From NCBI GenBank assembly GCA_051117555.1, contig JBNPEG010000125.1:1528-17102 (forward strand): DNA of 15,575 bases. The letters run 5' to 3'. Made by a program: the position numbers and the translations under genes. This stretch comes from Elainellaceae cyanobacterium. Its GTDB lineage: Bacteria; Cyanobacteriota; Cyanobacteriia; CAZCXK01. A model generated the notes under the pieces. The model was not told the DNA's origin, ran no database searches, and saw only the letters and a program-made list of their open reading frames with translations. Below are positions 1 through 15,212 of this stretch, one piece after another. How positions within the stretch are numbered: the stretch's first letter is position 1; the number at the start of each line of letters is the position of its first letter.

Positions 1-73
1 ACAGATGGCTTTGGGTGACGTCAAAGGGACGCAATCCGGGAAATGGGTTGATGCGGGTTTGGGTGTTCACCAT
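1..73 (-). CDS. 5' end (partial, runs off the window) of a putative nSTAND1-type STAND NTPase
   Basis: My translation from the ATG at 73 is MVNTQTRINPFPGLRPFDVTQSHL(F..). This matches the 'NP(F/Y)PGLxxFxxxxxxxFFGR' motif that precedes the Walker A of nSTAND1/STAND NTPases. It is co-oriented downstream of the TIR gene and is not in the ORF track. The P-loop itself lies outside the window. Confidence 0.8.
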   Translation of the reverse strand, partial: MVNTQTRINPFPGLRPFDVTQSHL

Positions 74-130
74 GACGCGGTGCCTCGTGGGTTATTGCCT
101 GCCGGGATGGTTTGGGATGGGCGATCGGGT

Positions 131-259
131 GTTGGGGCGAAGCATTTCGCCCCAATGGATTGCACAAAACCGAAACGTTTCGGCGAAATGCTTCGCCCCT
201 ACCTCGCCCCAATGGATTGCACAAAACCGAAACGTTTCGGCGAAATGCTTCGCCCCTAC
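131..259. repeat. REP/REPIN-like palindromic element with a tandem 56-bp duplication
   Basis: Arm 131-151 GTTGGGGCGAAGCATTTCGCC pairs with 182-202 GGCGAAATGCTTCGCCCCTAC (1 mismatch; the reverse complement begins GTAG). Segment 147-202 is duplicated exactly at 204-259 (period 57). Internal palindrome CCGAAACGTTTCGG at 170-183. Confidence 0.85.
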
Positions 260-291
260 TACGGATGGGATGGTGTGATGTGGGGAATGCA

Positions 292-1815
292 TCATCTCTG
301 TCCTGCGATCGCCTGCTGGATCTGGGTGATAAACGGGTCTAAATCCGTGGGTGAAAACGCATCAAACTGCTTGATGACCCTTGCCTCTCGGGTACGAAAT
401 CGCTGCTTTTGCGGGGTCTGCTCTCCAGCGATATAAACCGCTTTCGCGTGCATCGGCACCGTGCGTCCCAAACCGGGGGCTTGCTGGATTTCTCGCAGCT
501 TGGTTCTCAGCCAGGTTTCGCTGCCCATGTTCCAGTAGATCAGCACGGCATCGCATTCGACTAGGCTGTCGTGGTGATAGCGACGCACGTCGGCTTCGTT
601 CCCGTCAAACACCGACTCAATCAGTTCACATTCCAGGTCATTGAAGAGATAGTCAGCGATCGGCTGAACCGTCAATTCATATGTTTCTAAATCACGCTGG
701 TCGTAGATCAGATAAACTCGCGTTGGATGGGCTTCGTCTGCTGCCACATCGGCTGACGGGTTGATCTTTCGATGGAGCGTATCTTGAATGAGGGTCTTAA
801 ACTCTTCCAATGGAGTTTGCAACAGTTCGGCATTGTCTTGCAAGGCGCGAATAAAGTCCTGCTGTCGAGCCTCGTTCGCATCCAGACCCACAGGCATCCA
901 CACCAGTCGTGAAAAATGAGAATGCTGATGCTGATGGGTGATGGCGAGTTGGTGCTGAAGCTCAACGATCGACTGCTCTGCTCCCTCAGGCACAATGCCA
1001 TAACGACTGCCAACGACATGAATCGATAGCCGACATTTCTCCATGTGCTCCATCACGGCGTCAGAAAATCTTGGCGAGTGGGGCAATGCCTCGTCAGGTA
1101 GCACCAAGTGTCCTCGCTGCTGTAGCTCACGCCGAATATTATCACGGGCATTCTGCAAATCAGAGGTTGTTTCAGCTAAATAGATCGGGAAACGATCGGA
1201 GTCGCGACTATCCGGCGCTTCTATAACGCTAGGCAGCGGAGCGTCATTGCCTGCTCGATTTTCTGTTTGATGCAGCAGTGTTAAGAGTTTATGGGCGTCA
1301 TAGGCGACGTCATACAGCTTCATCAGAAAGTTTTTCTCAGCCTCTGAGCCAAAAATGGGGTCAAACTCAATAGGTCGCCCTGCGGCATCAACCTGAAAAA
1401 ATTCATAGCCCAATAAGTCTTGCGTTTCAGGAGGATACTCATCGCGTTCAACTGGCGTTTTGATCACTTTGAACAGTCGTGACTTCTCGCCAATCTGTAA
1501 TCCTCCTGACTGTTGGGCTGCCTGGCAAAACTCTTGCAGCTCTCGCATACACCAGGTTGACTGTAAGTAGCGGGGCGAAAACACCGACACTAGCAGAGCA
1601 ACTTTGGGCAACCGCTGAACAATGGACGGTTCGAGATAGTCATTGCCCGCAATGCGCTTGGTGTCGAGCCAGATTTTCGGTTCCTTACCTCGCAATTGAG
1701 CCAATCGCAGTTTCAGACAATTATGAAAATGAGAAATCCAACCTTTCTGTCCGTCTGTCAGAGGTTGATTATCGATATGGGTGTAGCTGATAAAGATGTC
1801 GTCTTCGAAGGACAT
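292..1815 (-). CDS. Multi-domain TIR protein: N-terminal TIR (TIR_2-like), central DUF4062-like domain, C-terminal TIR/SEFIR-like domain
   Basis: TIR motifs DIFISY, IWLD and SPRYLQSTWCMREL (Glu codon at 1540-1542). Second domain IYLAETTSDL..R..IRREL..G / SIHVVGSRYG..P / SIVELQ resembles DUF4062. Third domain RVYLIYDQRD..CDAVLIYW..W. Start placed at ATG 1815 (MSFEDDIFISY) rather than the track's 1926; ATG 1848 is an alternative. Confidence 0.85.
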   Translation of the reverse strand: MSFEDDIFISYTHIDNQPLTDGQKGWISHFHNCLKLRLAQLRGKEPKIWLDTKRIAGNDYLEPSIVQRLPKVALLVSVFSPRYLQSTWCMRELQEFCQAAQQSGGLQIGEKSRLFKVIKTPVERDEYPPETQDLLGYEFFQVDAAGRPIEFDPIFGSEAEKNFLMKLYDVAYDAHKLLTLLHQTENRAGNDAPLPSVIEAPDSRDSDRFPIYLAETTSDLQNARDNIRRELQQRGHLVLPDEALPHSPRFSDAVMEHMEKCRLSIHVVGSRYGIVPEGAEQSIVELQHQLAITHQHQHSHFSRLVWMPVGLDANEARQQDFIRALQDNAELLQTPLEEFKTLIQDTLHRKINPSADVAADEAHPTRVYLIYDQRDLETYELTVQPIADYLFNDLECELIESVFDGNEADVRRYHHDSLVECDAVLIYWNMGSETWLRTKLREIQQAPGLGRTVPMHAKAVYIAGEQTPQKQRFRTREARVIKQFDAFSPTDLDPFITQIQQAIAGQR

Positions 1816-4343: not shown

Positions 4344-4781
4344 ATGTGTGTTGCATGTCTCACATTTTCAGCGTTAACCCTATTCACCCCAGTCAGTGAA
4401 GCTCCCCAAGTAGCTGACGTTCAGCAAACCGGTGCCCGCGAAATTGTCTTCACCCGCGCTGAAGCAATGCCGCTTGCCCAAGAAACCCAGTTGGCGATCG
4501 CCGAATTTTTAGACTACTTGCCCGCTGACCCTGAGTTAGCGTTGCTGCGAGATGGGCTTACCCAGTTAAGTGTTGCGTTAGAAACTGCCCAATCTGATGA
4601 GGAGGCTGAGCAGATGGTTGATGATCATCTCGACGCGCTCGAAGATGACGTGTTTGCCTCACCCAATAGTGAGCGCATCATCGCCGTATTGCGAGACATT
4701 GTCATTGGCGATAATCCACTCCAGGCTAGTCTCTTAGACCACATCAATAGTCGTTCTCATGCATTTCAGGCACACGCTTAA
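4344..4781 (+). CDS. Hypothetical acidic, helical, probably exported protein
   Basis: Long ORF. ATG 4344 (MCVACLTFSALTLF) gives a hydrophobic N-terminus and has GAGGAG at 4326-4331 upstream; the track start at 4263 is an alternative. Its stop overlaps the kinase stop (TTAA, 4778-4781). Confidence 0.6.
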   Translation: MCVACLTFSALTLFTPVSEAPQVADVQQTGAREIVFTRAEAMPLAQETQLAIAEFLDYLPADPELALLRDGLTQLSVALETAQSDEEAEQMVDDHLDALEDDVFASPNSERIIAVLRDIVIGDNPLQASLLDHINSRSHAFQAHA

Positions 4782-6613
4782 CGAATGGACTCGCGTTCAA
4801 CGATGATTAACGTTTCTAGATCAAATTGAGTCGATTGAGGGGAAGGCACCTGAGCCTTGGCGATCGCTCTGCTGCGTGGCAGGGTAACGATAAAGTGGGT
4901 TTGATTGGCGTCGCTATACACCCGAATCTTACCGCTGAGGCTATCGACTAGCTTTTGCACCAACGCCAGCCCCAGCCCCGTGCCTCCTTGTTTCCAGGGG
5001 TCAGCACTCGGAACCCGATAAAACTTCTCAAAGATATGAGGAATCTCTTTACTAGGGATTTCTACTCCAGAGTTGCTAATCGTAAAGCTCACCTGATCGG
5101 CATCCATGCTGACATGCACAGCAATTTGTTCGCCGGGGGGGGTGTACTTGCAGGCATTATGCAGAAGCTCTGTGAGAATCCGCCCGAGGCTGTCTCCATC
5201 GGACTCAATCATCAACGGTTCTGAACAATCCATCTGAACCGTGAGGTATTGACACCGATTCCGGGTGCGTGCCTCAAAAGGGTTCAAGAGCTGAGTTAGC
5301 CAGGCGCATAAATCGATTGAGCTAAGTTCGAGATCATGTTGCCTCTCGTCCAATCGCCTTAAATCAAGCAAATCCTCAATTAGATGAATTTCGCGCTGGC
5401 ATTCATTTTGTAGGATTTGTAGATATTGAGTCACCTTGTTTGTCAATCGTGATTGCGATTTAGAATTTAGCGTATTGCTAGATTGCAGTAATGATGACTG
5501 TCCTAGCGCCAGTTCTAACATGCGACTTGCGACCTTGATATTGGCAACCGGGGTTCGCAGTTCATGTGAGACTGTGCTTAAAAAGTCGTCTTTTAGCTGA
5601 TTGAGGCGGGTTAGTTCTTGCACTTGGGCATGTGCAGCCTGATAGAGGCGAGCTTGTCGAATGGCGATCGCACACTGATTCGCAACTTGTTGCACCAGTC
5701 GCAGTTCTAAATCTCGAAATCCATAATCCGGATCATTAATCAGCCATAAATCTCCCAATACGCCCTGATCGTCGATGATAGGGCAGGCAAGCATGGCCAC
5801 GCGTCCTCGGGCCGGGTTGGGCTGAATCGAACAATATTGAAAGTATTGACCGCCCAAAAGCTGTCTGTAGATTGGCGGAGAGTTTGCCATATTCATCACC
5901 CGCCCCTGCACTAATCCCGTTGAGTGGGCGTGTTCGTAACACACTGTCGCCGTGCCTGCTTGGAGATCGTATAAAGCCGTATTACAGGATTTGACCCCCA
6001 AGCCTTGTCCCAATTCTCGAATGGCAGCTTGAAGAATCTGTTCCTCGTCTAATGAATCTCGCACCTTATCAGTAATCCGCTTCAGCAGCGACTCAAACTC
6101 TAGCGCCTGCTGAAGCCTCTCGGCGGATTTGAGCAAATTTTCTTCAATCCGATGCCTCTCATCAATTTGCTTCTCCAATGCCTGATTTGCGGATTCTAAC
6201 TGAGCCGGGCTGGGCAATGCCAATGCTTTTGGCAACACTCGAATGATTTCAAGCCCAGTCATAATCGAAATCGCAGCCATCGCGGCTTTCGCCAAACCAG
6301 ATGCCCAATATACCGGCTTCCAGACCGTCAGACCTTCGAAACCATGAGTCGTGCCACAGCAGAATACAAACAGCCCAAATAGTAGAATCGTGCTCTGGAA
6401 GGGTACATCATCTCGTCGATAGAGAAAGGCAATAAGCATCCATGAGATGGCATAGCAGGCGATCGCAATCCAGAAATCAGACAGGACATGCAATGTGACT
6501 AGATGGGTTTGCCAAAGATATTGCCAAAGATATTGCCAGAGATATTGCCAGAGATAACAGTGGCCGTGAGAAACATCATGCGACGAGACAAGCCAATGAA
6601 ATAGACTGGGCAT
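4778..6613 (-). CDS. Ethylene-receptor-like membrane sensor histidine kinase (3-TM ethylene-binding-like domain, GAF, HisKA, HATPase)
   Basis: HGHCYLWQ..LHVLSDFWIAIA, FGLFVFCCGTTH and LPKALALPSP resemble the ETR1/Slr1212 ethylene-binding domain. GAF: ITDKVRDSLD...QCAIAIRQARLY. H-box FLSTVSHELRTP, N-box LLHNACKYT, F-box IFEKFYRV, G2 GTGLGL. Confidence 0.9.
   Translation of the reverse strand: MPSLFHWLVSSHDVSHGHCYLWQYLWQYLWQYLWQTHLVTLHVLSDFWIAIACYAISWMLIAFLYRRDDVPFQSTILLFGLFVFCCGTTHGFEGLTVWKPVYWASGLAKAAMAAISIMTGLEIIRVLPKALALPSPAQLESANQALEKQIDERHRIEENLLKSAERLQQALEFESLLKRITDKVRDSLDEEQILQAAIRELGQGLGVKSCNTALYDLQAGTATVCYEHAHSTGLVQGRVMNMANSPPIYRQLLGGQYFQYCSIQPNPARGRVAMLACPIIDDQGVLGDLWLINDPDYGFRDLELRLVQQVANQCAIAIRQARLYQAAHAQVQELTRLNQLKDDFLSTVSHELRTPVANIKVASRMLELALGQSSLLQSSNTLNSKSQSRLTNKVTQYLQILQNECQREIHLIEDLLDLRRLDERQHDLELSSIDLCAWLTQLLNPFEARTRNRCQYLTVQMDCSEPLMIESDGDSLGRILTELLHNACKYTPPGEQIAVHVSMDADQVSFTISNSGVEIPSKEIPHIFEKFYRVPSADPWKQGGTGLGLALVQKLVDSLSGKIRVYSDANQTHFIVTLPRSRAIAKAQVPSPQSTQFDLETLIIVERESIR
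6509..6556. repeat. In-frame 12-bp tandem repeat x4 encoding YLWQ x4
   Basis: TTGCCAAAGATA x2 followed by TTGCCAGAGATA x2. Confidence 0.97.
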
Positions 6614-8081: not shown

Positions 8082-8142
8082 AAACCACTATGTCATAACG
8101 TCTGATTGCATCCTCTAAGAAAAATCCTTGCGTCTCCGTCTA

Positions 8143-9909
8143 ATGGCTCATTCCGTCTTCATTCACGATGCTGATTCGTCTCAATGGCTTTTATTCGAGC
8201 AACCGCACCAAATTCATACTACACACGATCTTCATGATGTAATCCCCATACTTCAGCAGATTGAGCAAGCCGTTGAATCTGGCTACTATGCCGCAGGATT
8301 TATCAGTTACGAAGCGTCTCCCGCATTCGATCCGGCGATCGCCACCCACCCTCTATGCGAATTTCCGGCACTTTGGTTTGGGCTATACGATCCGCCAAGG
8401 CGGCTGACGATGGATGAATTTATCACGTTTCAAGCTCGTCAGGCATATTCTCATGGTCTATGGACACCCGACGTCAGCCGCCCAGACTTTGACGAAGCGA
8501 TCGCCCGCATCAAACGCTACATCGTTCAAGGCGATACTTTTCAGGTTAATTATTCATTTCGGCTGCATGCCTCCTTTCACGGTGACGCATTTTCTTTCTT
8601 TCTCGATTTGATGGAAGCCAAACCAGGTCAGTATGGGGCGTTTATAGATTTGGGAGCGATCGCCATTTGCTCGGCGTCTCCTGAACTATTTTTCTCTTTA
8701 TCAGGAACTCACCTACGCTCAAAGCCGATGAAAGGTACGGCGGCACGGGGATTGTCAACCGAGGGCGATCGCCAACAGGCAATGGGGTTGCGTCAGTCAA
8801 TCAAGGACCAGGCTGAAAATGTCATGGTGGTTGATATGATTCGCAACGACATGGGACGCATTGCAGAGGTCGGTAGCGTCCAGGTTCCGGTATTGTTTGA
8901 AACCGAACGATATCCGACGGTTTGGCAGATGACATCGACCATAACGGCTGAAACCAGCGCCAATTGGGTCGACATTCTTCAAGCGCTATTCCCGTGCGCA
9001 TCGATTACAGGAGCCCCCAAACCGCGAACGATGGATATTATCACGGAGCTAGAACCGTCGCCCCGCAATCTATACACCGGCACGATTGGCTATCTTACGC
9101 CCCACCGTCAGGCTCAGTTTAACGTGGCAATTCGCACCGTGCTGATCGATTCACACGCCCACACGGCTGAATATGGAGTAGGCAGCGGTATTGTATGGGA
9201 TTCTGACAGCCAGAAAGAATATGACGAATGTCGCGTAAAGATGCTTATTTTGGGCGATACGCGCTCCGCGCAGACGAGCCAACGCCGACCAGATTTTTCT
9301 CTCCTCGAAACCATCCGCTGGACGCCCCATGACGGATACTTTTTGATGCCCTACCATCTACAGCGCCTCCAAAATTCAGCCGACTATTTCAGTATTCCAA
9401 TGCAAATCGACGCAATCCAGCATGCCTTTGAGAATCTAAGTCAGCAACTATCACGCGTTCCACACAAGATTCGGTTGCGGGTCGACCAAGACGGTCACTG
9501 GCAGCTAGAGTCTACCCCCTGGATACGTCCGACTCATGGGCCTGTTAGACTCCGATTGGCGACTCAAGCGATTGATTCATCTAATTTGTTTCTTTATCAC
9601 AAAACGACCCATCGGCAGGTATATGACGACGCGCGTTCGGCGTGTTCTGACTGCGATGACGTCTTGCTTTGGAATGAATCTGGACACGTCACAGAATCCT
9701 GTATTGCGAATCTGGTGGTGCAAATTGATCACAAACAATATACTCCGCCGATTTGCTGTGGCCTTTTGGCAGGAACGTTTCGAGCATGGTTGTTAGAGCA
9801 GCACAAGATTGAAGAAAGAGTGATCCCACGGGAAGAACTATATCGAGCCGATCGGCTCTATTTGATCAACTCGGTGCGAGGTTGGCAGGACGCAATGCTG
9901 CAACTTTGA
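8143..9909 (+). CDS. pabB: Aminodeoxychorismate synthase component I fused to a PabC-like (aminotransferase class IV) domain
   Basis: Chorismate-binding motifs GDTFQVN, SASPELFF, KPMKGT, KDQAENVMVVDMIRND, FPCASITGAPK and FNVAIRT. C-terminal LLET..HLQRL..HKTT..NE.G.VTE..GLLAGTFR..NSVRG. ATG 8143 preferred over TTG 8128. Confidence 0.9.
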   Translation: MAHSVFIHDADSSQWLLFEQPHQIHTTHDLHDVIPILQQIEQAVESGYYAAGFISYEASPAFDPAIATHPLCEFPALWFGLYDPPRRLTMDEFITFQARQAYSHGLWTPDVSRPDFDEAIARIKRYIVQGDTFQVNYSFRLHASFHGDAFSFFLDLMEAKPGQYGAFIDLGAIAICSASPELFFSLSGTHLRSKPMKGTAARGLSTEGDRQQAMGLRQSIKDQAENVMVVDMIRNDMGRIAEVGSVQVPVLFETERYPTVWQMTSTITAETSANWVDILQALFPCASITGAPKPRTMDIITELEPSPRNLYTGTIGYLTPHRQAQFNVAIRTVLIDSHAHTAEYGVGSGIVWDSDSQKEYDECRVKMLILGDTRSAQTSQRRPDFSLLETIRWTPHDGYFLMPYHLQRLQNSADYFSIPMQIDAIQHAFENLSQQLSRVPHKIRLRVDQDGHWQLESTPWIRPTHGPVRLRLATQAIDSSNLFLYHKTTHRQVYDDARSACSDCDDVLLWNESGHVTESCIANLVVQIDHKQYTPPICCGLLAGTFRAWLLEQHKIEERVIPREELYRADRLYLINSVRGWQDAMLQL

Positions 9910-13511: not shown

Positions 13512-14351
13512 TCACCAGAGTGCAACTTGATAGGCATGCTGCGTTTGCCTTGGCGTATCAATTACGCAGAGCCCAAGGGCAAACAAATCCACTGATATTC
13601 GCACACGTTCGTGGTTGCTGATAGTATTCCAAGCGTTTCTCATTCCAGTTGACCACGAAATATCATCCACAATCAGAAGTGATGGATTGGACAGTCGGGG
13701 TAACACACGTTCGACATGGGTTACTGTAGCTAATTCTGAATGATCGGCATCCAAGAATACGTAATCAATTTCCCCATAGTTTCGGAGAATCTGCGGCAAT
13801 GTCTCATCGAAACTGCCAGGAATGACTTCGGCATTGTGAAGACCGAGGGTGTGCAAATTTTGCTGGGCTAGAGATGCTCGTGCATTTGACCCTTCTAAGG
13901 TTATGATTCGCCCTCTCCCATTAATTGCTAATCCTGCAGCTTGGTAGGCAGCTGAAATCCCTAAGCATGTGCCTAATTCAAGACACATATCAGGATGAAA
14001 GTGTTGGATAACTTTTAAGAGAAAAATGCTCCAGCTTACTTTTTTGCTGCTGATACGGCAGACTGATGATATAGACTCATGTCCAGCGTGTTGCCCTTCC
14101 CAGCTTCCAGTAACTAGCGTATCGTCTGATTTGAGCAGTTGAGTTCTTGCTACTTCGATGCGGCTGACCCACTCTTGCTCAGCGGCGGTAAGTTGCGGTT
14201 TGAGAGAATCTCGAATGACTTGGGCGATCGCCCGCACCTGTGGATCGTCCGCATAGCTCATCTTAGCCAGTACAGTATTGGTTTGCACAACCCGATACCA
14301 AATCCGATGTAGCGTCCGGCGCATTTTGCCTATGGTATTCCAGACTCGCAT
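13512..14351 (-). CDS. Class I SAM-dependent methyltransferase (O-methyltransferase/Methyltransf_24-like)
   Basis: Motif I CLELGTCLGIS, ITLEG, DYVFLDADH and LIVDDISWS. ATG 14351 has GGTGGGAG upstream; 14384 and 14324 are alternatives. Confidence 0.88.
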   Translation of the reverse strand: MRVWNTIGKMRRTLHRIWYRVVQTNTVLAKMSYADDPQVRAIAQVIRDSLKPQLTAAEQEWVSRIEVARTQLLKSDDTLVTGSWEGQHAGHESISSVCRISSKKVSWSIFLLKVIQHFHPDMCLELGTCLGISAAYQAAGLAINGRGRIITLEGSNARASLAQQNLHTLGLHNAEVIPGSFDETLPQILRNYGEIDYVFLDADHSELATVTHVERVLPRLSNPSLLIVDDISWSTGMRNAWNTISNHERVRISVDLFALGLCVIDTPRQTQHAYQVALW

Positions 14352-14474
14352 CACAACGTCTCCCACCAAACACCTACCTGACACTGATGACAGATGCGAG
14401 GCAATTGTTCCAATCTATCCTGATTTTGAAGCCTCGATCACCGAGCAAGCCCGCCCATATTTATCAGAAGTAAC

Positions 14475-15212
14475 CTAGTTCTGCGATCGCCCAGACCTTT
14501 TATCAGCAATATACGCCTTGATTGCTAAATCAAGTACCGATTCAGCACAGTGAATCGCTCTTAAATAATCATGTTTTGATGCCGAAAAATTCAGATATTC
14601 AAACCGAATTAGATGGGTATGATAGTGAAATTTGTGAGTAATAACCCTGCAATACAAATAATACTTAAACTCTAGCTTGGAGCGAAAGAAGTGTGCGGAC
14701 TTAAGCTGAGTTTTTTCTTCGTCAACTCGACTCTGATCGACCGTCATATCAAGATAATCATTCGCAAGCCTAATAATGTCACCCATGTCATTATTAATTT
14801 GAGCGATGAATGGCGAGAACCAAATGTCTGGGTCAATGTTTTCTTTGCTTGCTAAATATCCTGAAATTAACTGTGCACCGATACTATTCCGACAAACCGA
14901 TAAATAGTGATCAAGCGATTGCCTCAGATCAGAGACTGTCTCCTTATGCATAGCTTGAAACAAAGATTCGATAGATTTTATCCCAATTGCATGAGAATTA
15001 GGAATCTGTGCCACCATCGCGGTTTTGATGGGCGCTAATTGGAGATGAGTGGGTAAAGTATCGTCTAAATCATACAAATCATCAAGTTGAAACGTCAGCA
15101 TGATTAATGTGTAAATGGCATCGAGATCCCGATCTGAAACTTGAATATGATGTCGAGAGAGAATGATGTGATATAGCTCAACATAGTGTCTAATTTCAGA
15201 TGTATTAAACAT
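14475..15212 (-). CDS. Hypothetical all-helical protein with class I isoprenoid/terpene-synthase-like Asp-rich motifs
   Basis: QLDDLYD (DDxxD at 15069-15083), YLSVCRNSIG and RLANDYLDMTVD (about 14736-14771), in the order and spacing expected for the class I fold. The gene is AT-rich. Confidence 0.6.
   Translation of the reverse strand: MFNTSEIRHYVELYHIILSRHHIQVSDRDLDAIYTLIMLTFQLDDLYDLDDTLPTHLQLAPIKTAMVAQIPNSHAIGIKSIESLFQAMHKETVSDLRQSLDHYLSVCRNSIGAQLISGYLASKENIDPDIWFSPFIAQINNDMGDIIRLANDYLDMTVDQSRVDEEKTQLKSAHFFRSKLEFKYYLYCRVITHKFHYHTHLIRFEYLNFSASKHDYLRAIHCAESVLDLAIKAYIADKRSGRSQN

Follow-up and report, generated by a model that had tools for sequence, protein, structure and literature searches.

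At the left end of a 15,575-nucleotide (nt) stretch of DNA from an Elainellaceae cyanobacterium (GenBank assembly GCA_051117555.1, contig JBNPEG010000125.1, positions 1,528 to 17,102; G000:C249:1528-17102 in our numbering, and hereafter the window) two genes follow one another on the minus strand. The upstream gene (window 292..1815, including the stop codon at 292-294) encodes a 507-residue, three-domain TIR protein that we call A, and the downstream gene, of which the window holds the 5' end (1..73, 24 codons from the ATG at 73-71 onward), encodes an nSTAND1 nucleoside triphosphatase (NTPase) that we call B. A spacer of 218 nt (74..291, minus strand) separates the two. The translated open reading frame (ORF) of A begins MSFEDDIFISY; a longer TTG-start ORF (292-1926) is also listed for this gene, and homologues begin at the ATG. 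The B ORF opens MVNTQTRINPFPGLRPFDVTQSHL and passes the window edge on the same strand as A. A preliminary description, drawn from the letters of the window, had reported the TIR gene and the same-strand ORF 218 nt downstream of it, an arrangement that we confirm, and had proposed that they form a split sensor/effector system in which A supplies in trans the effector that B lacks.

In the sequence record the B gene is divided. To the left of the window lies a scaffold gap of 100 N (C249:1428-1527), and window positions 1-127 are present as an exact second copy at C249:1301-1427, the two copies flanking the gap. This looks like an overlap that the scaffolder left unmerged, that is, an assembly artefact, and we therefore take the B sequence as continuous; the division is probably also the reason why the gene is missing from the annotation. 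Outside the window B occupies C249:3-1373, and the ORF that the preliminary description had seen at its very start runs for 457 codons to the contig end, with a P-loop and without a stop. The first 300 nt of C249, searched for a continuation of B, had no match elsewhere in the genome, and a tblastn search of the genome with the closest relative's linker and WD40 segment as query returned paralogues and generic WD40 genes only. Because WD40 repeats are abundant in this genome and the assembly consists of 256 contigs, none of them below 2 kb, the interruption of B is likely to be a repeat-induced assembly break. On another contig (C252:15581-16629, minus strand) a WD40 protein is represented by its C-terminal part only (about 340 residues, roughly eight repeats) and starts exactly at the contig end; it was considered as a possible candidate for the missing tail of B, and the assignment could not be made.

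The class that the preliminary description had assigned to B from its opening motif is borne out by the longer sequence. The Pfam profile nSTAND1 (PF20703) matches residues 10-426 over profile positions 1-373 of 379, with an E-value of 1.4e-101 and 341.4 bits against a cut-off of 27.1. Walker A (GTSGSGKSS, residues 49-57) and Walker B (LLVVVDQFEE, residues 144-153) are both intact, and G49, S51, G52, G54, K55, S56, S57, D149, Q150, E152 and E153 are invariant among 56 sequences. The NTPase modules of relatives are 51-87% identical to that of B, and the closest relative's protein is 87% identical over B's 457 residues. Since the module begins at about residue 9-10, B has no room for a fused effector, as had been argued from the position of the motif at residue 9. 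The genome carries four nSTAND1 genes, and only B starts at the NTPase motif. Its three paralogues (C65:699-4886; C201:51787-56937, minus strand; C16:10708-13734) are 1395, 1716 and at least 1009 residues long, and each has a fused N-terminal Peptidase_C14 caspase domain, called by Pfam for two of them and for the third by 44% identity to the first over 436 residues. That B is the sole effector-less nSTAND1 copy in the genome matches what the idea of an effector in trans predicts. In the part that follows the NTPase, the C65 and C16 paralogues show WD40-like similarity (tblastn) and the C201 paralogue has WD40 repeats (Pfam); the C16 paralogue reaches its contig end.

A belongs to a large family, with more than 2000 matching protein clusters; of 7999 candidates that were scored, 2085 are homologues at E<=0.001. 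Its AlphaFold2 model, built on 106 homologues (mean predicted local distance difference test, pLDDT, 89.8), consists of three alpha/beta domains joined by low-confidence linkers. Domain 1 (residues 1-190; window 1246..1815, minus strand) exceeds the Pfam cut-offs of TIR_2 (PF13676, 39.2 bits against 28) and TIR (PF01582, 28.9 against 21.3), these matches covering residues 39-104. The best structure match of domain 1 is the TIR domain of RPP1 (Z 13.6, root-mean-square deviation 2.8, 138 residues aligned), many other TIRs come next, and SARM1, RUN1, MyD88 and SPARTA are among the Foldseek matches. The domain carries the motif SPRYxxSxWCxxE, here SPRYLQSTWCMRE, which aligns with WCxxEL of the Cat1, SNC1 and RUN1 TIR chains. 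Of the 149 homologues that have a residue at this position, 145 retain Glu92 (codon 1540-1542), which we take to be the equivalent of the catalytic glutamate of NADase TIRs, consistent with the PDB titles 'RUN1 E100A' and 'Sarm1 E642A'.

Domain 2 (residues 205-352; window 760..1203, minus strand) is TIR-like, of the DUF4062/NIR type. DUF4062 (PF13271) matches residues 211-288 over profile positions 2-79 of 82, with 30.0 bits against a cut-off of 24.7, and the structure matches include RCL/DNPH1 (Z 10.4) and TIR-STING (Z 10.3). In the accessible portions of three preprints (bioRxiv 10.64898/2026.09.04.749371, 10.64898/2026.05.01.722283 and 10.64898/2026.06.25.731849) DUF4062 is a TIR-like NADase whose function is abolished by mutation of its glutamate. 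The first of these, again in its accessible portion, gives the inactivating Glu-to-Gln changes PsAvs2 E108Q, Vulcan E98Q and VstA E103Q, and in the text available for KpSwz the same DUF4062 glutamate was mutated to alanine, with loss of function. When 12 canonical DUF4062 segments from cyanobacterial genomes and 12 A-family members were aligned with MAFFT, the canonical K-S-Y-T-x-x-E-Y lined up with x-S-[IV]-V-x-L-Q-[HN] of the A family. The catalytic column holds glutamate in 10 of the 12 canonical segments, the other two being badly aligned at an insertion, and glutamine in all 12 A-family members; Gln287 (codon 955-957) is found in 155/155 A homologues. As the catalytic glutamate is thus fixed as Gln287, domain 2 is probably a non-catalytic derivative of DUF4062, to judge from its sequence.

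Domain 3 (residues 362-507; window 295..732, minus strand) has a flavodoxin-like fold and, modelled alone, a pLDDT of 96.5. Its best Foldseek match is the CMP N-glycosidase MilB (E 5.8e-5, TM 0.60), followed by DNPH1 and deoxyribosyltransferases and then by TIR and SEFIR domains; VIA-align placed a 2'-deoxyribosyltransferase and the RRS1 TIR at the same Z of 11.4. The SEFIR profile (PF08357) stays below its cut-off (17.2 bits against 23, residues 366-496), and SEFIR structures, at Z 10.1-10.2, are tied with many flavodoxin-like folds. An outright TIR assignment of domain 3 was dropped, receiver domains and small GTPases tying with the TIR matches. Where the helix of domain 1 has Glu92, domain 3 has W435-x-x-x-K439, and W435 is present in 156/156 A homologues. 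The predicted docking surface for the NTPase of B (see below) lies on this domain, which looks like a docking module. The triple TIR fold of the preliminary description is therefore kept in part: "three TIR-type folds" is a fair description of A, and the first alone looks catalytic, the second having glutamine at the catalytic position and the third being docking-like.

The two genes are linked far beyond this genome. From the side of A we surveyed 80 loci in contigs of one genome per species, the best among at least 586 that were confirmed, and from the side of B the best 80 metagenome loci matched by the B NTPase module. A same-strand B homologue (phmmer E <1e-45) lies downstream of A in 78 of the 80 A loci, and the two others (L007 and L048) end at a contig edge, so that all 78 testable loci are linked; the association of TIR homologues with STAND genes, on which the preliminary description depended, thus holds. 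In the converse direction, a same-strand A gene lies directly upstream of B in 78/80 loci (78 of the 79 testable), one of the remaining loci having no room for it and the other, L144, having unrelated genes upstream. The A loci span at least nine phyla, being drawn from Cyanobacteria, Acidobacteriota, Verrucomicrobiota, Gemmatimonadota, Bacteroidota, Pseudomonadota, Poribacteria, Eremiobacterota and Anaerolineales. Within the phylum of our cyanobacterium, 3 of 401 sampled genomes carry A; PF13271 has no match in the genus's two other genomes (99% and 61% complete), nor has A itself in the 99%-complete congener genome G002. Such a patchy distribution is as expected for an accessory gene.

Further indications of the role of A come from fused and extended forms. 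On one metagenome contig a protein of 1880 residues, P0125, comprises the three domains of A (1 to ~495), an nSTAND1 module (501-916) and a CHAT domain (1591-1843). It could be a real fusion or the product of a lost stop between overlapping genes, and it counts for little because it is the single fusion among 16 long relatives. Some A relatives carry an extra N-terminal CHAT protease or protein-kinase domain, and these forms and P0125 fit A as the effector-bearing subunit.

We then modelled B (residues 1-457) together with full-length A. We obtained interface scores (ipSAE) of 0.77, 0.77 and 0.78, whereas none of three controls exceeded 0.00; of 157 solved complexes 116 attain the mark used for this score, as do 2 of 215 mismatched pairs, a calibration that is rough here on account of custom alignments. 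The runs share at least 94% of their contacts, with a partner pLDDT of at least 80. On the side of A the predicted interface consists of residues 326-345, at the end of domain 2, and of 372-374, 403-415 and 431-450 in domain 3; on the side of B it consists of residues 20-40, 65-79, 141 and 223-256; these are the helix with the SHLFFGR portion of the signature, a stretch that follows Walker A, and a loop region that is conserved. Domain 3 contributes its best-conserved positions to the interface (W435, K439, H414, G448 and G450), and so does B (F26, G70, W79, R224, P234, V237, L246, L250 and N252). The model supports binding of A to the B NTPase via domain 3. With linkage in both directions, a complex model that beats its controls, caspase-fused paralogues and one natural fusion, the proposal that A supplies the effector in trans is well supported by computation.

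The spacer between the genes sets this locus apart from most relatives. In 67 of the 74 loci with a placeable start the gap between A and B measures -26 to +26 nt; it measures 124-1767 nt in six, and one start is probably mis-called. Here the 218 nt contain, at about window positions 134-250, a 57-nt tandem duplication in two copies with GC-rich palindromes GGGGCGAAGCATTTCGCCCC, and the minus-strand spacer RNA has a predicted minimum free energy of -75.1 kcal/mol (a raw value, without a shuffled baseline). Weaker copies of the repeat lie on C203 and C187 (77-78% identity) and on C208 (67%), and the duplication may represent a small repeat element that has entered a junction at which the genes usually overlap. 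No promoter or terminator consensus was found on the minus (coding) strand within the spacer. One might suppose that adjacency is non-functional in this organism, B being a decaying or truncated remnant that an inserted repeat has separated from an A that acts alone; the hairpin-bearing spacer is indeed unusual for the family and B is not traceable past codon 457. We regard this as very improbable. The 457 codons are free of stops and, at 87% identity to the closest relative, keep the Walker motifs and the other invariant residues; spacers occur in the closest relatives too (124 nt in L006, 201 nt in L016), B of L006 being full-length; and the break in B is a contig end in an assembly as fragmented as described above.

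What may lie beyond codon 457 is suggested by relatives. Just after the NTPase, at residues 440-620, 53 of 55 complete B relatives have a single hydrophobic 19-mer (Kyte-Doolittle >=1.6). In the 15-residue flanks of this helix there are on average 6.7 lysines and arginines on the N side against 3.2 on the C side, and 46/53 have the higher count on the N side; from this charge bias the NTPase is predicted to be cytoplasmic and the C-terminal part to lie outside. The regions that follow the helix differ: by Pfam, 9 of 18 have WD40 repeats, 4 have TPR, 1 has DUF2914 and 4 are without a match. Variable regions after the helix, combined with an NTPase conserved at 51-87% identity, point to a constant switch with a swappable sensor. 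The closest relative, L006 (73% identity to ours in A, 87% in B), has a B of 1168 residues with the helix and ~13 WD40 repeats. In relatives, then, B is predicted from sequence to be a membrane-anchored, single-pass STAND form with an extracytoplasmic sensor, so that, as a correction to the preliminary description, it would not be a cytosolic sensor of the Avs type.

A TonB-dependent receptor (Plug and beta-barrel) lies directly after B on the same strand in 13 of the 80 A loci, in Acidobacteriota and Bacteroidota (L017, L018, L019, L020, L031, L037, L038, L041, L062, L068, L081, L084 and L085), a neighbour that fits a periplasm-facing sensor, and a sigma-70 region-2 protein is nearby in 6/80. 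These genes and the predicted extracytoplasmic position of the sensor part would also suit signalling across the envelope outside immunity, in which B senses a nutrient, envelope or kin cue and A gives a metabolic or regulatory output derived from NAD+; the sparse defence genes in the flanks of relatives and the housekeeping context of the window, both detailed below, point the same way. We nevertheless hold such a function to be unlikely. Swappable repeat sensors and a patchy distribution (3/401 genomes) are typical of conflict systems, relatives of A also gain CHAT protease domains, and, in the accessible parts of the DUF4062 literature consulted, all characterised uses of active bacterial TIR/DUF4062 domains are anti-phage.

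Two other third genes recur beside the pair. A DUF4231/SLATT_3 protein with two transmembrane segments adjoins it in 13/80 loci of several phyla and in varied orientation (the cyanobacterial loci L008, L010 and L011, and L020, L026, L027, L053, L078, L080 and L082-L085), and an 864-residue protein with RyR, TPR-S and guanylate-cyclase domains adjoins it in 12/80 (L022, L023, L032, L035, L042, L043, L047, L050-L052, L066 and L070). Burroughs and Aravind are said to regard SLATT and TPR-S as nucleotide-responsive partners of TIR-type enzymes, and these neighbours hint at a nucleotide signal from the TIR domain. The output of the pair could accordingly be of the Thoeris kind, with the TIR domain of A as signal generator and an ADP-ribose-derived nucleotide activating a separate effector, for instance a pore of the SLATT type or a sensor protein with TPR-S; this would differ from the direct output that we favour in the last step only and would be compatible with it as regards B and docking. 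The theme of TIR, DrHyd and SLOG signal generators, as laid out in the available text of PMC9503650 and 10.64898/2026.10.19.760177, lends it plausibility. This is the main alternative, and the neighbours favour it in the minority of loci that have them; it remains doubtful in our eyes, SLATT_3 being absent from 67/80 and TPR-S from 68/80 loci within 7-kb flanks. None of the recurrent third genes (DUF4231/SLATT_3, TonB receptor, RyR/TPR-S) was seen in our window; in the genome DUF4231 had no match, in a search whose control also matched nowhere, and TPR-S had weak matches only (best E 5e-5).

The pair is uncatalogued in the two collections searched, a check that the preliminary description had proposed. 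No model of PADLOC-DB 2.0.0 or NCBIfam 20.0 lies above threshold for A or B; the best PADLOC match of B is mad8 (E 8.8e-5, P-loop only), with no Avs match, and A reaches 17.6 bits with NCBIfam ThcB4 against a cut-off of 220, with no PADLOC match to ThsB. In the literature searched we found no experimental paper on the A-B family. In the accessible text of the nSTAND1, DUF4062 and STAND-TIR papers found, including PMC10907252, PMC13581612 and three 2026 DUF4062 preprints, the pair is not described, and figures and bioRxiv supplements may show it.

Among known systems, the nSTAND1 counter-invader systems are close to B, which is likewise a clear nSTAND1 NTPase; in the portion of that work available to us (Kaur, Iyer, Burroughs & Aravind 2021, eLife, PMC8195603) nSTAND1 proteins have variable C-terminal sensors and effectors that are either fused or recruited from a neighbour gene, recruitment proceeding through the same adaptor (EAD or Death-like) on both proteins. 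B differs from such adaptor-coupled STAND proteins (Kaur et al. 2020, 2021) in that nothing precedes its NTPase, and the contact predicted here is a heterotypic one, domain 3 of A against the NTPase of B. With Avs proteins, including PsAvs2 in the accessible part of its preprint (bioRxiv 10.64898/2026.09.04.749371), the pair shares the logic of a repeat sensor, a STAND NTPase and a NAD+-cleaving TIR-type output. By contrast, Avs is a single cytosolic polypeptide with an N-terminal effector, whereas the effector here is a separate protein, the DUF4062-type domain of A has glutamine for the catalytic glutamate, and B is predicted to be membrane-anchored in relatives. Domain 2 of A is of the same family (PF13271) as Swarozyc (bioRxiv 10.64898/2026.05.01.722283), Evangelion (10.64898/2026.06.25.731849) and Vulcan/Vesta, KpSwz being a weak sequence match to A (E 0.32). 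As far as the available sections of these reports go, such systems have an active DUF4062 NADase fused to its own sensor region, whereas domain 2 of A is predicted to be inactive and is flanked by a TIR of the active type and a docking domain.

Plant and animal receptors offer further parallels. Domain 1 of A is nearest to plant TIRs, and the gathering of TIRs by a STAND oligomer that we propose would be alike in the TIR-containing resistosomes of plants (RPP1 and ROQ1); there, unlike in A and B, the TIR is fused to the receptor, which is not membrane-spanning. The apoptosome has a WD40 sensor and recruits its effector non-covalently, although it does so by CARD-CARD contact and, unlike B as predicted in relatives, is not membrane-spanning. 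In Thoeris the protein ThsB is, as A, a TIR protein with a conserved glutamate, and a subset of A/B relatives has SLATT or TPR-S neighbours; however, the pair has no ThsA-type partner, the conserved neighbour of A being a STAND NTPase, whereas the TIR protein of Thoeris does the sensing itself and no STAND partner takes part.

Taken together, we favour, with a probability of roughly 0.62, the reading that A and B form one module in which an effector-less STAND sensor and switch holds a separate TIR output subunit. B would be the sensor and switch, with a P-loop NTPase followed, in relatives, by one helix and by WD40, TPR or other repeats outside the cytoplasm. Domain 3 of A, with the end of domain 2, would dock on the N-terminal face of the B NTPase, and this docking would replace the covalent link of fused TIR-STAND or caspase-STAND proteins. 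Upon a trigger, B would oligomerise in a nucleotide-dependent manner and gather the docked A subunits, and the gathered TIR domains, with Glu92, would assemble into an active NAD+-cleaving form; depletion of NAD+ or a signal derived from ADP-ribose would then lead to growth arrest or cell death. Domain 2 would most likely serve as a non-catalytic scaffold or as a nucleotide-binding regulator. The gene structure, the identities of the domains, the residue pattern, linkage in both directions and a predicted interface that outscores its controls are computed results, whereas the oligomerisation of B, the NADase activity of A, the trigger and the membrane topology in this organism are steps that we infer. 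Computation lends support to the split of sensor and effector between two proteins; the conflict or cell-death role that the preliminary description attached to it is suggested by domain content only, in a housekeeping context.

A tentative extension of this module, to which we give less credence than to the module itself, would be a receptor that works across the envelope in the manner of NLR proteins (nucleotide-binding proteins with leucine-rich repeats), with a periplasmic repeat sensor, a STAND switch and a cytoplasmic TIR NADase held by a pseudo-enzyme adaptor domain. In some lineages it would work with the outer-membrane TonB-dependent receptor encoded downstream, and its cue might be an event at the surface or in the periplasm: adsorption of a phage, the entry of a genome, or a signal from kin or competitors. 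We know of no description of an innate immune receptor among bacterial STAND proteins that senses the extracytoplasmic space.

Several observations weigh against the single-module reading or restrain it. The complex model is of a 1:1 heterodimer, scored by its own confidence, and has no bearing on oligomers or affinity. Both 80-locus sets are closest relatives rather than random samples, and related genomes are not independent. In this organism B ends with the contig at codon 457, short of the membrane helix expected from relatives, and a hairpin-bearing spacer of 218 nt stands where most relatives have overlapping genes, so that co-expression may be looser here. Glu92 is absent in 4 of the 149 A relatives, and two divergent, low-GC-looking variants (L167:2509-3960 and L189:2444-3937) retain domains 2 and 3 but have lost the WCxxE motif from a domain 1 that is degenerate. 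In domain 2, Glu215, which takes the canonical serine position in the first strand motif and is present in 142/152 homologues, could in principle stand in for the lost catalytic glutamate. The fold of domain 3 is unspecific, receiver domains and small GTPases (Z 10-11) coming within 1 Z unit of the TIR and deoxyribosyltransferase matches. A PADLOC match (E<=1e-10) was found in 8 of the 105 large flanking ORFs of relatives, several of these being generic ATPases, and the defence-island signal is therefore weak.

The remaining genes of the window, too, are housekeeping genes; they include DUF4079, M23 peptidase, ETR1-like histidine kinase, PabB/PabC-like fusion and PdxA genes, among others. The histidine kinase (4778-6613, minus strand) has an ethylene-receptor-like N-terminal domain (ETR1_N, GAF, HisKA and HATPase_c), and a chorismate-binding enzyme fused to a class IV aminotransferase (PabB/PabC-like) is encoded at 8128-9909 on the plus strand. 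Beyond this fusion, with 13512-15212 on the minus strand as the second interval noted, the window has a methyltransferase and a weak terpene-synthase-like ORF. No Rfam family and no tRNA was found anywhere in the window.

To our knowledge, every bacterial STAND protein of the NLR-like kind that has been studied is one cytosolic polypeptide and has its own effector. The A/B family, by our reading, separates the effector from the STAND protein and retains A via a probably dead enzyme domain, with a sensor that is predicted to lie across the membrane in relatives; it is large, spans at least nine phyla and is strongly conserved in both partners. For the window itself, the outcome is that an assembly-truncated STAND gene merits annotation and pairing with the TIR gene. 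If the docking model is true, it would provide a concrete, mutable interface for the activation of a TIR enzyme in trans by a STAND oligomer, and a natural case in which DUF4062/NIR and deoxyribosyltransferase-like domains have been reused as scaffolds. If, in addition, the family works across the envelope, it would represent an innate immune receptor whose sensor works outside the cytoplasm.

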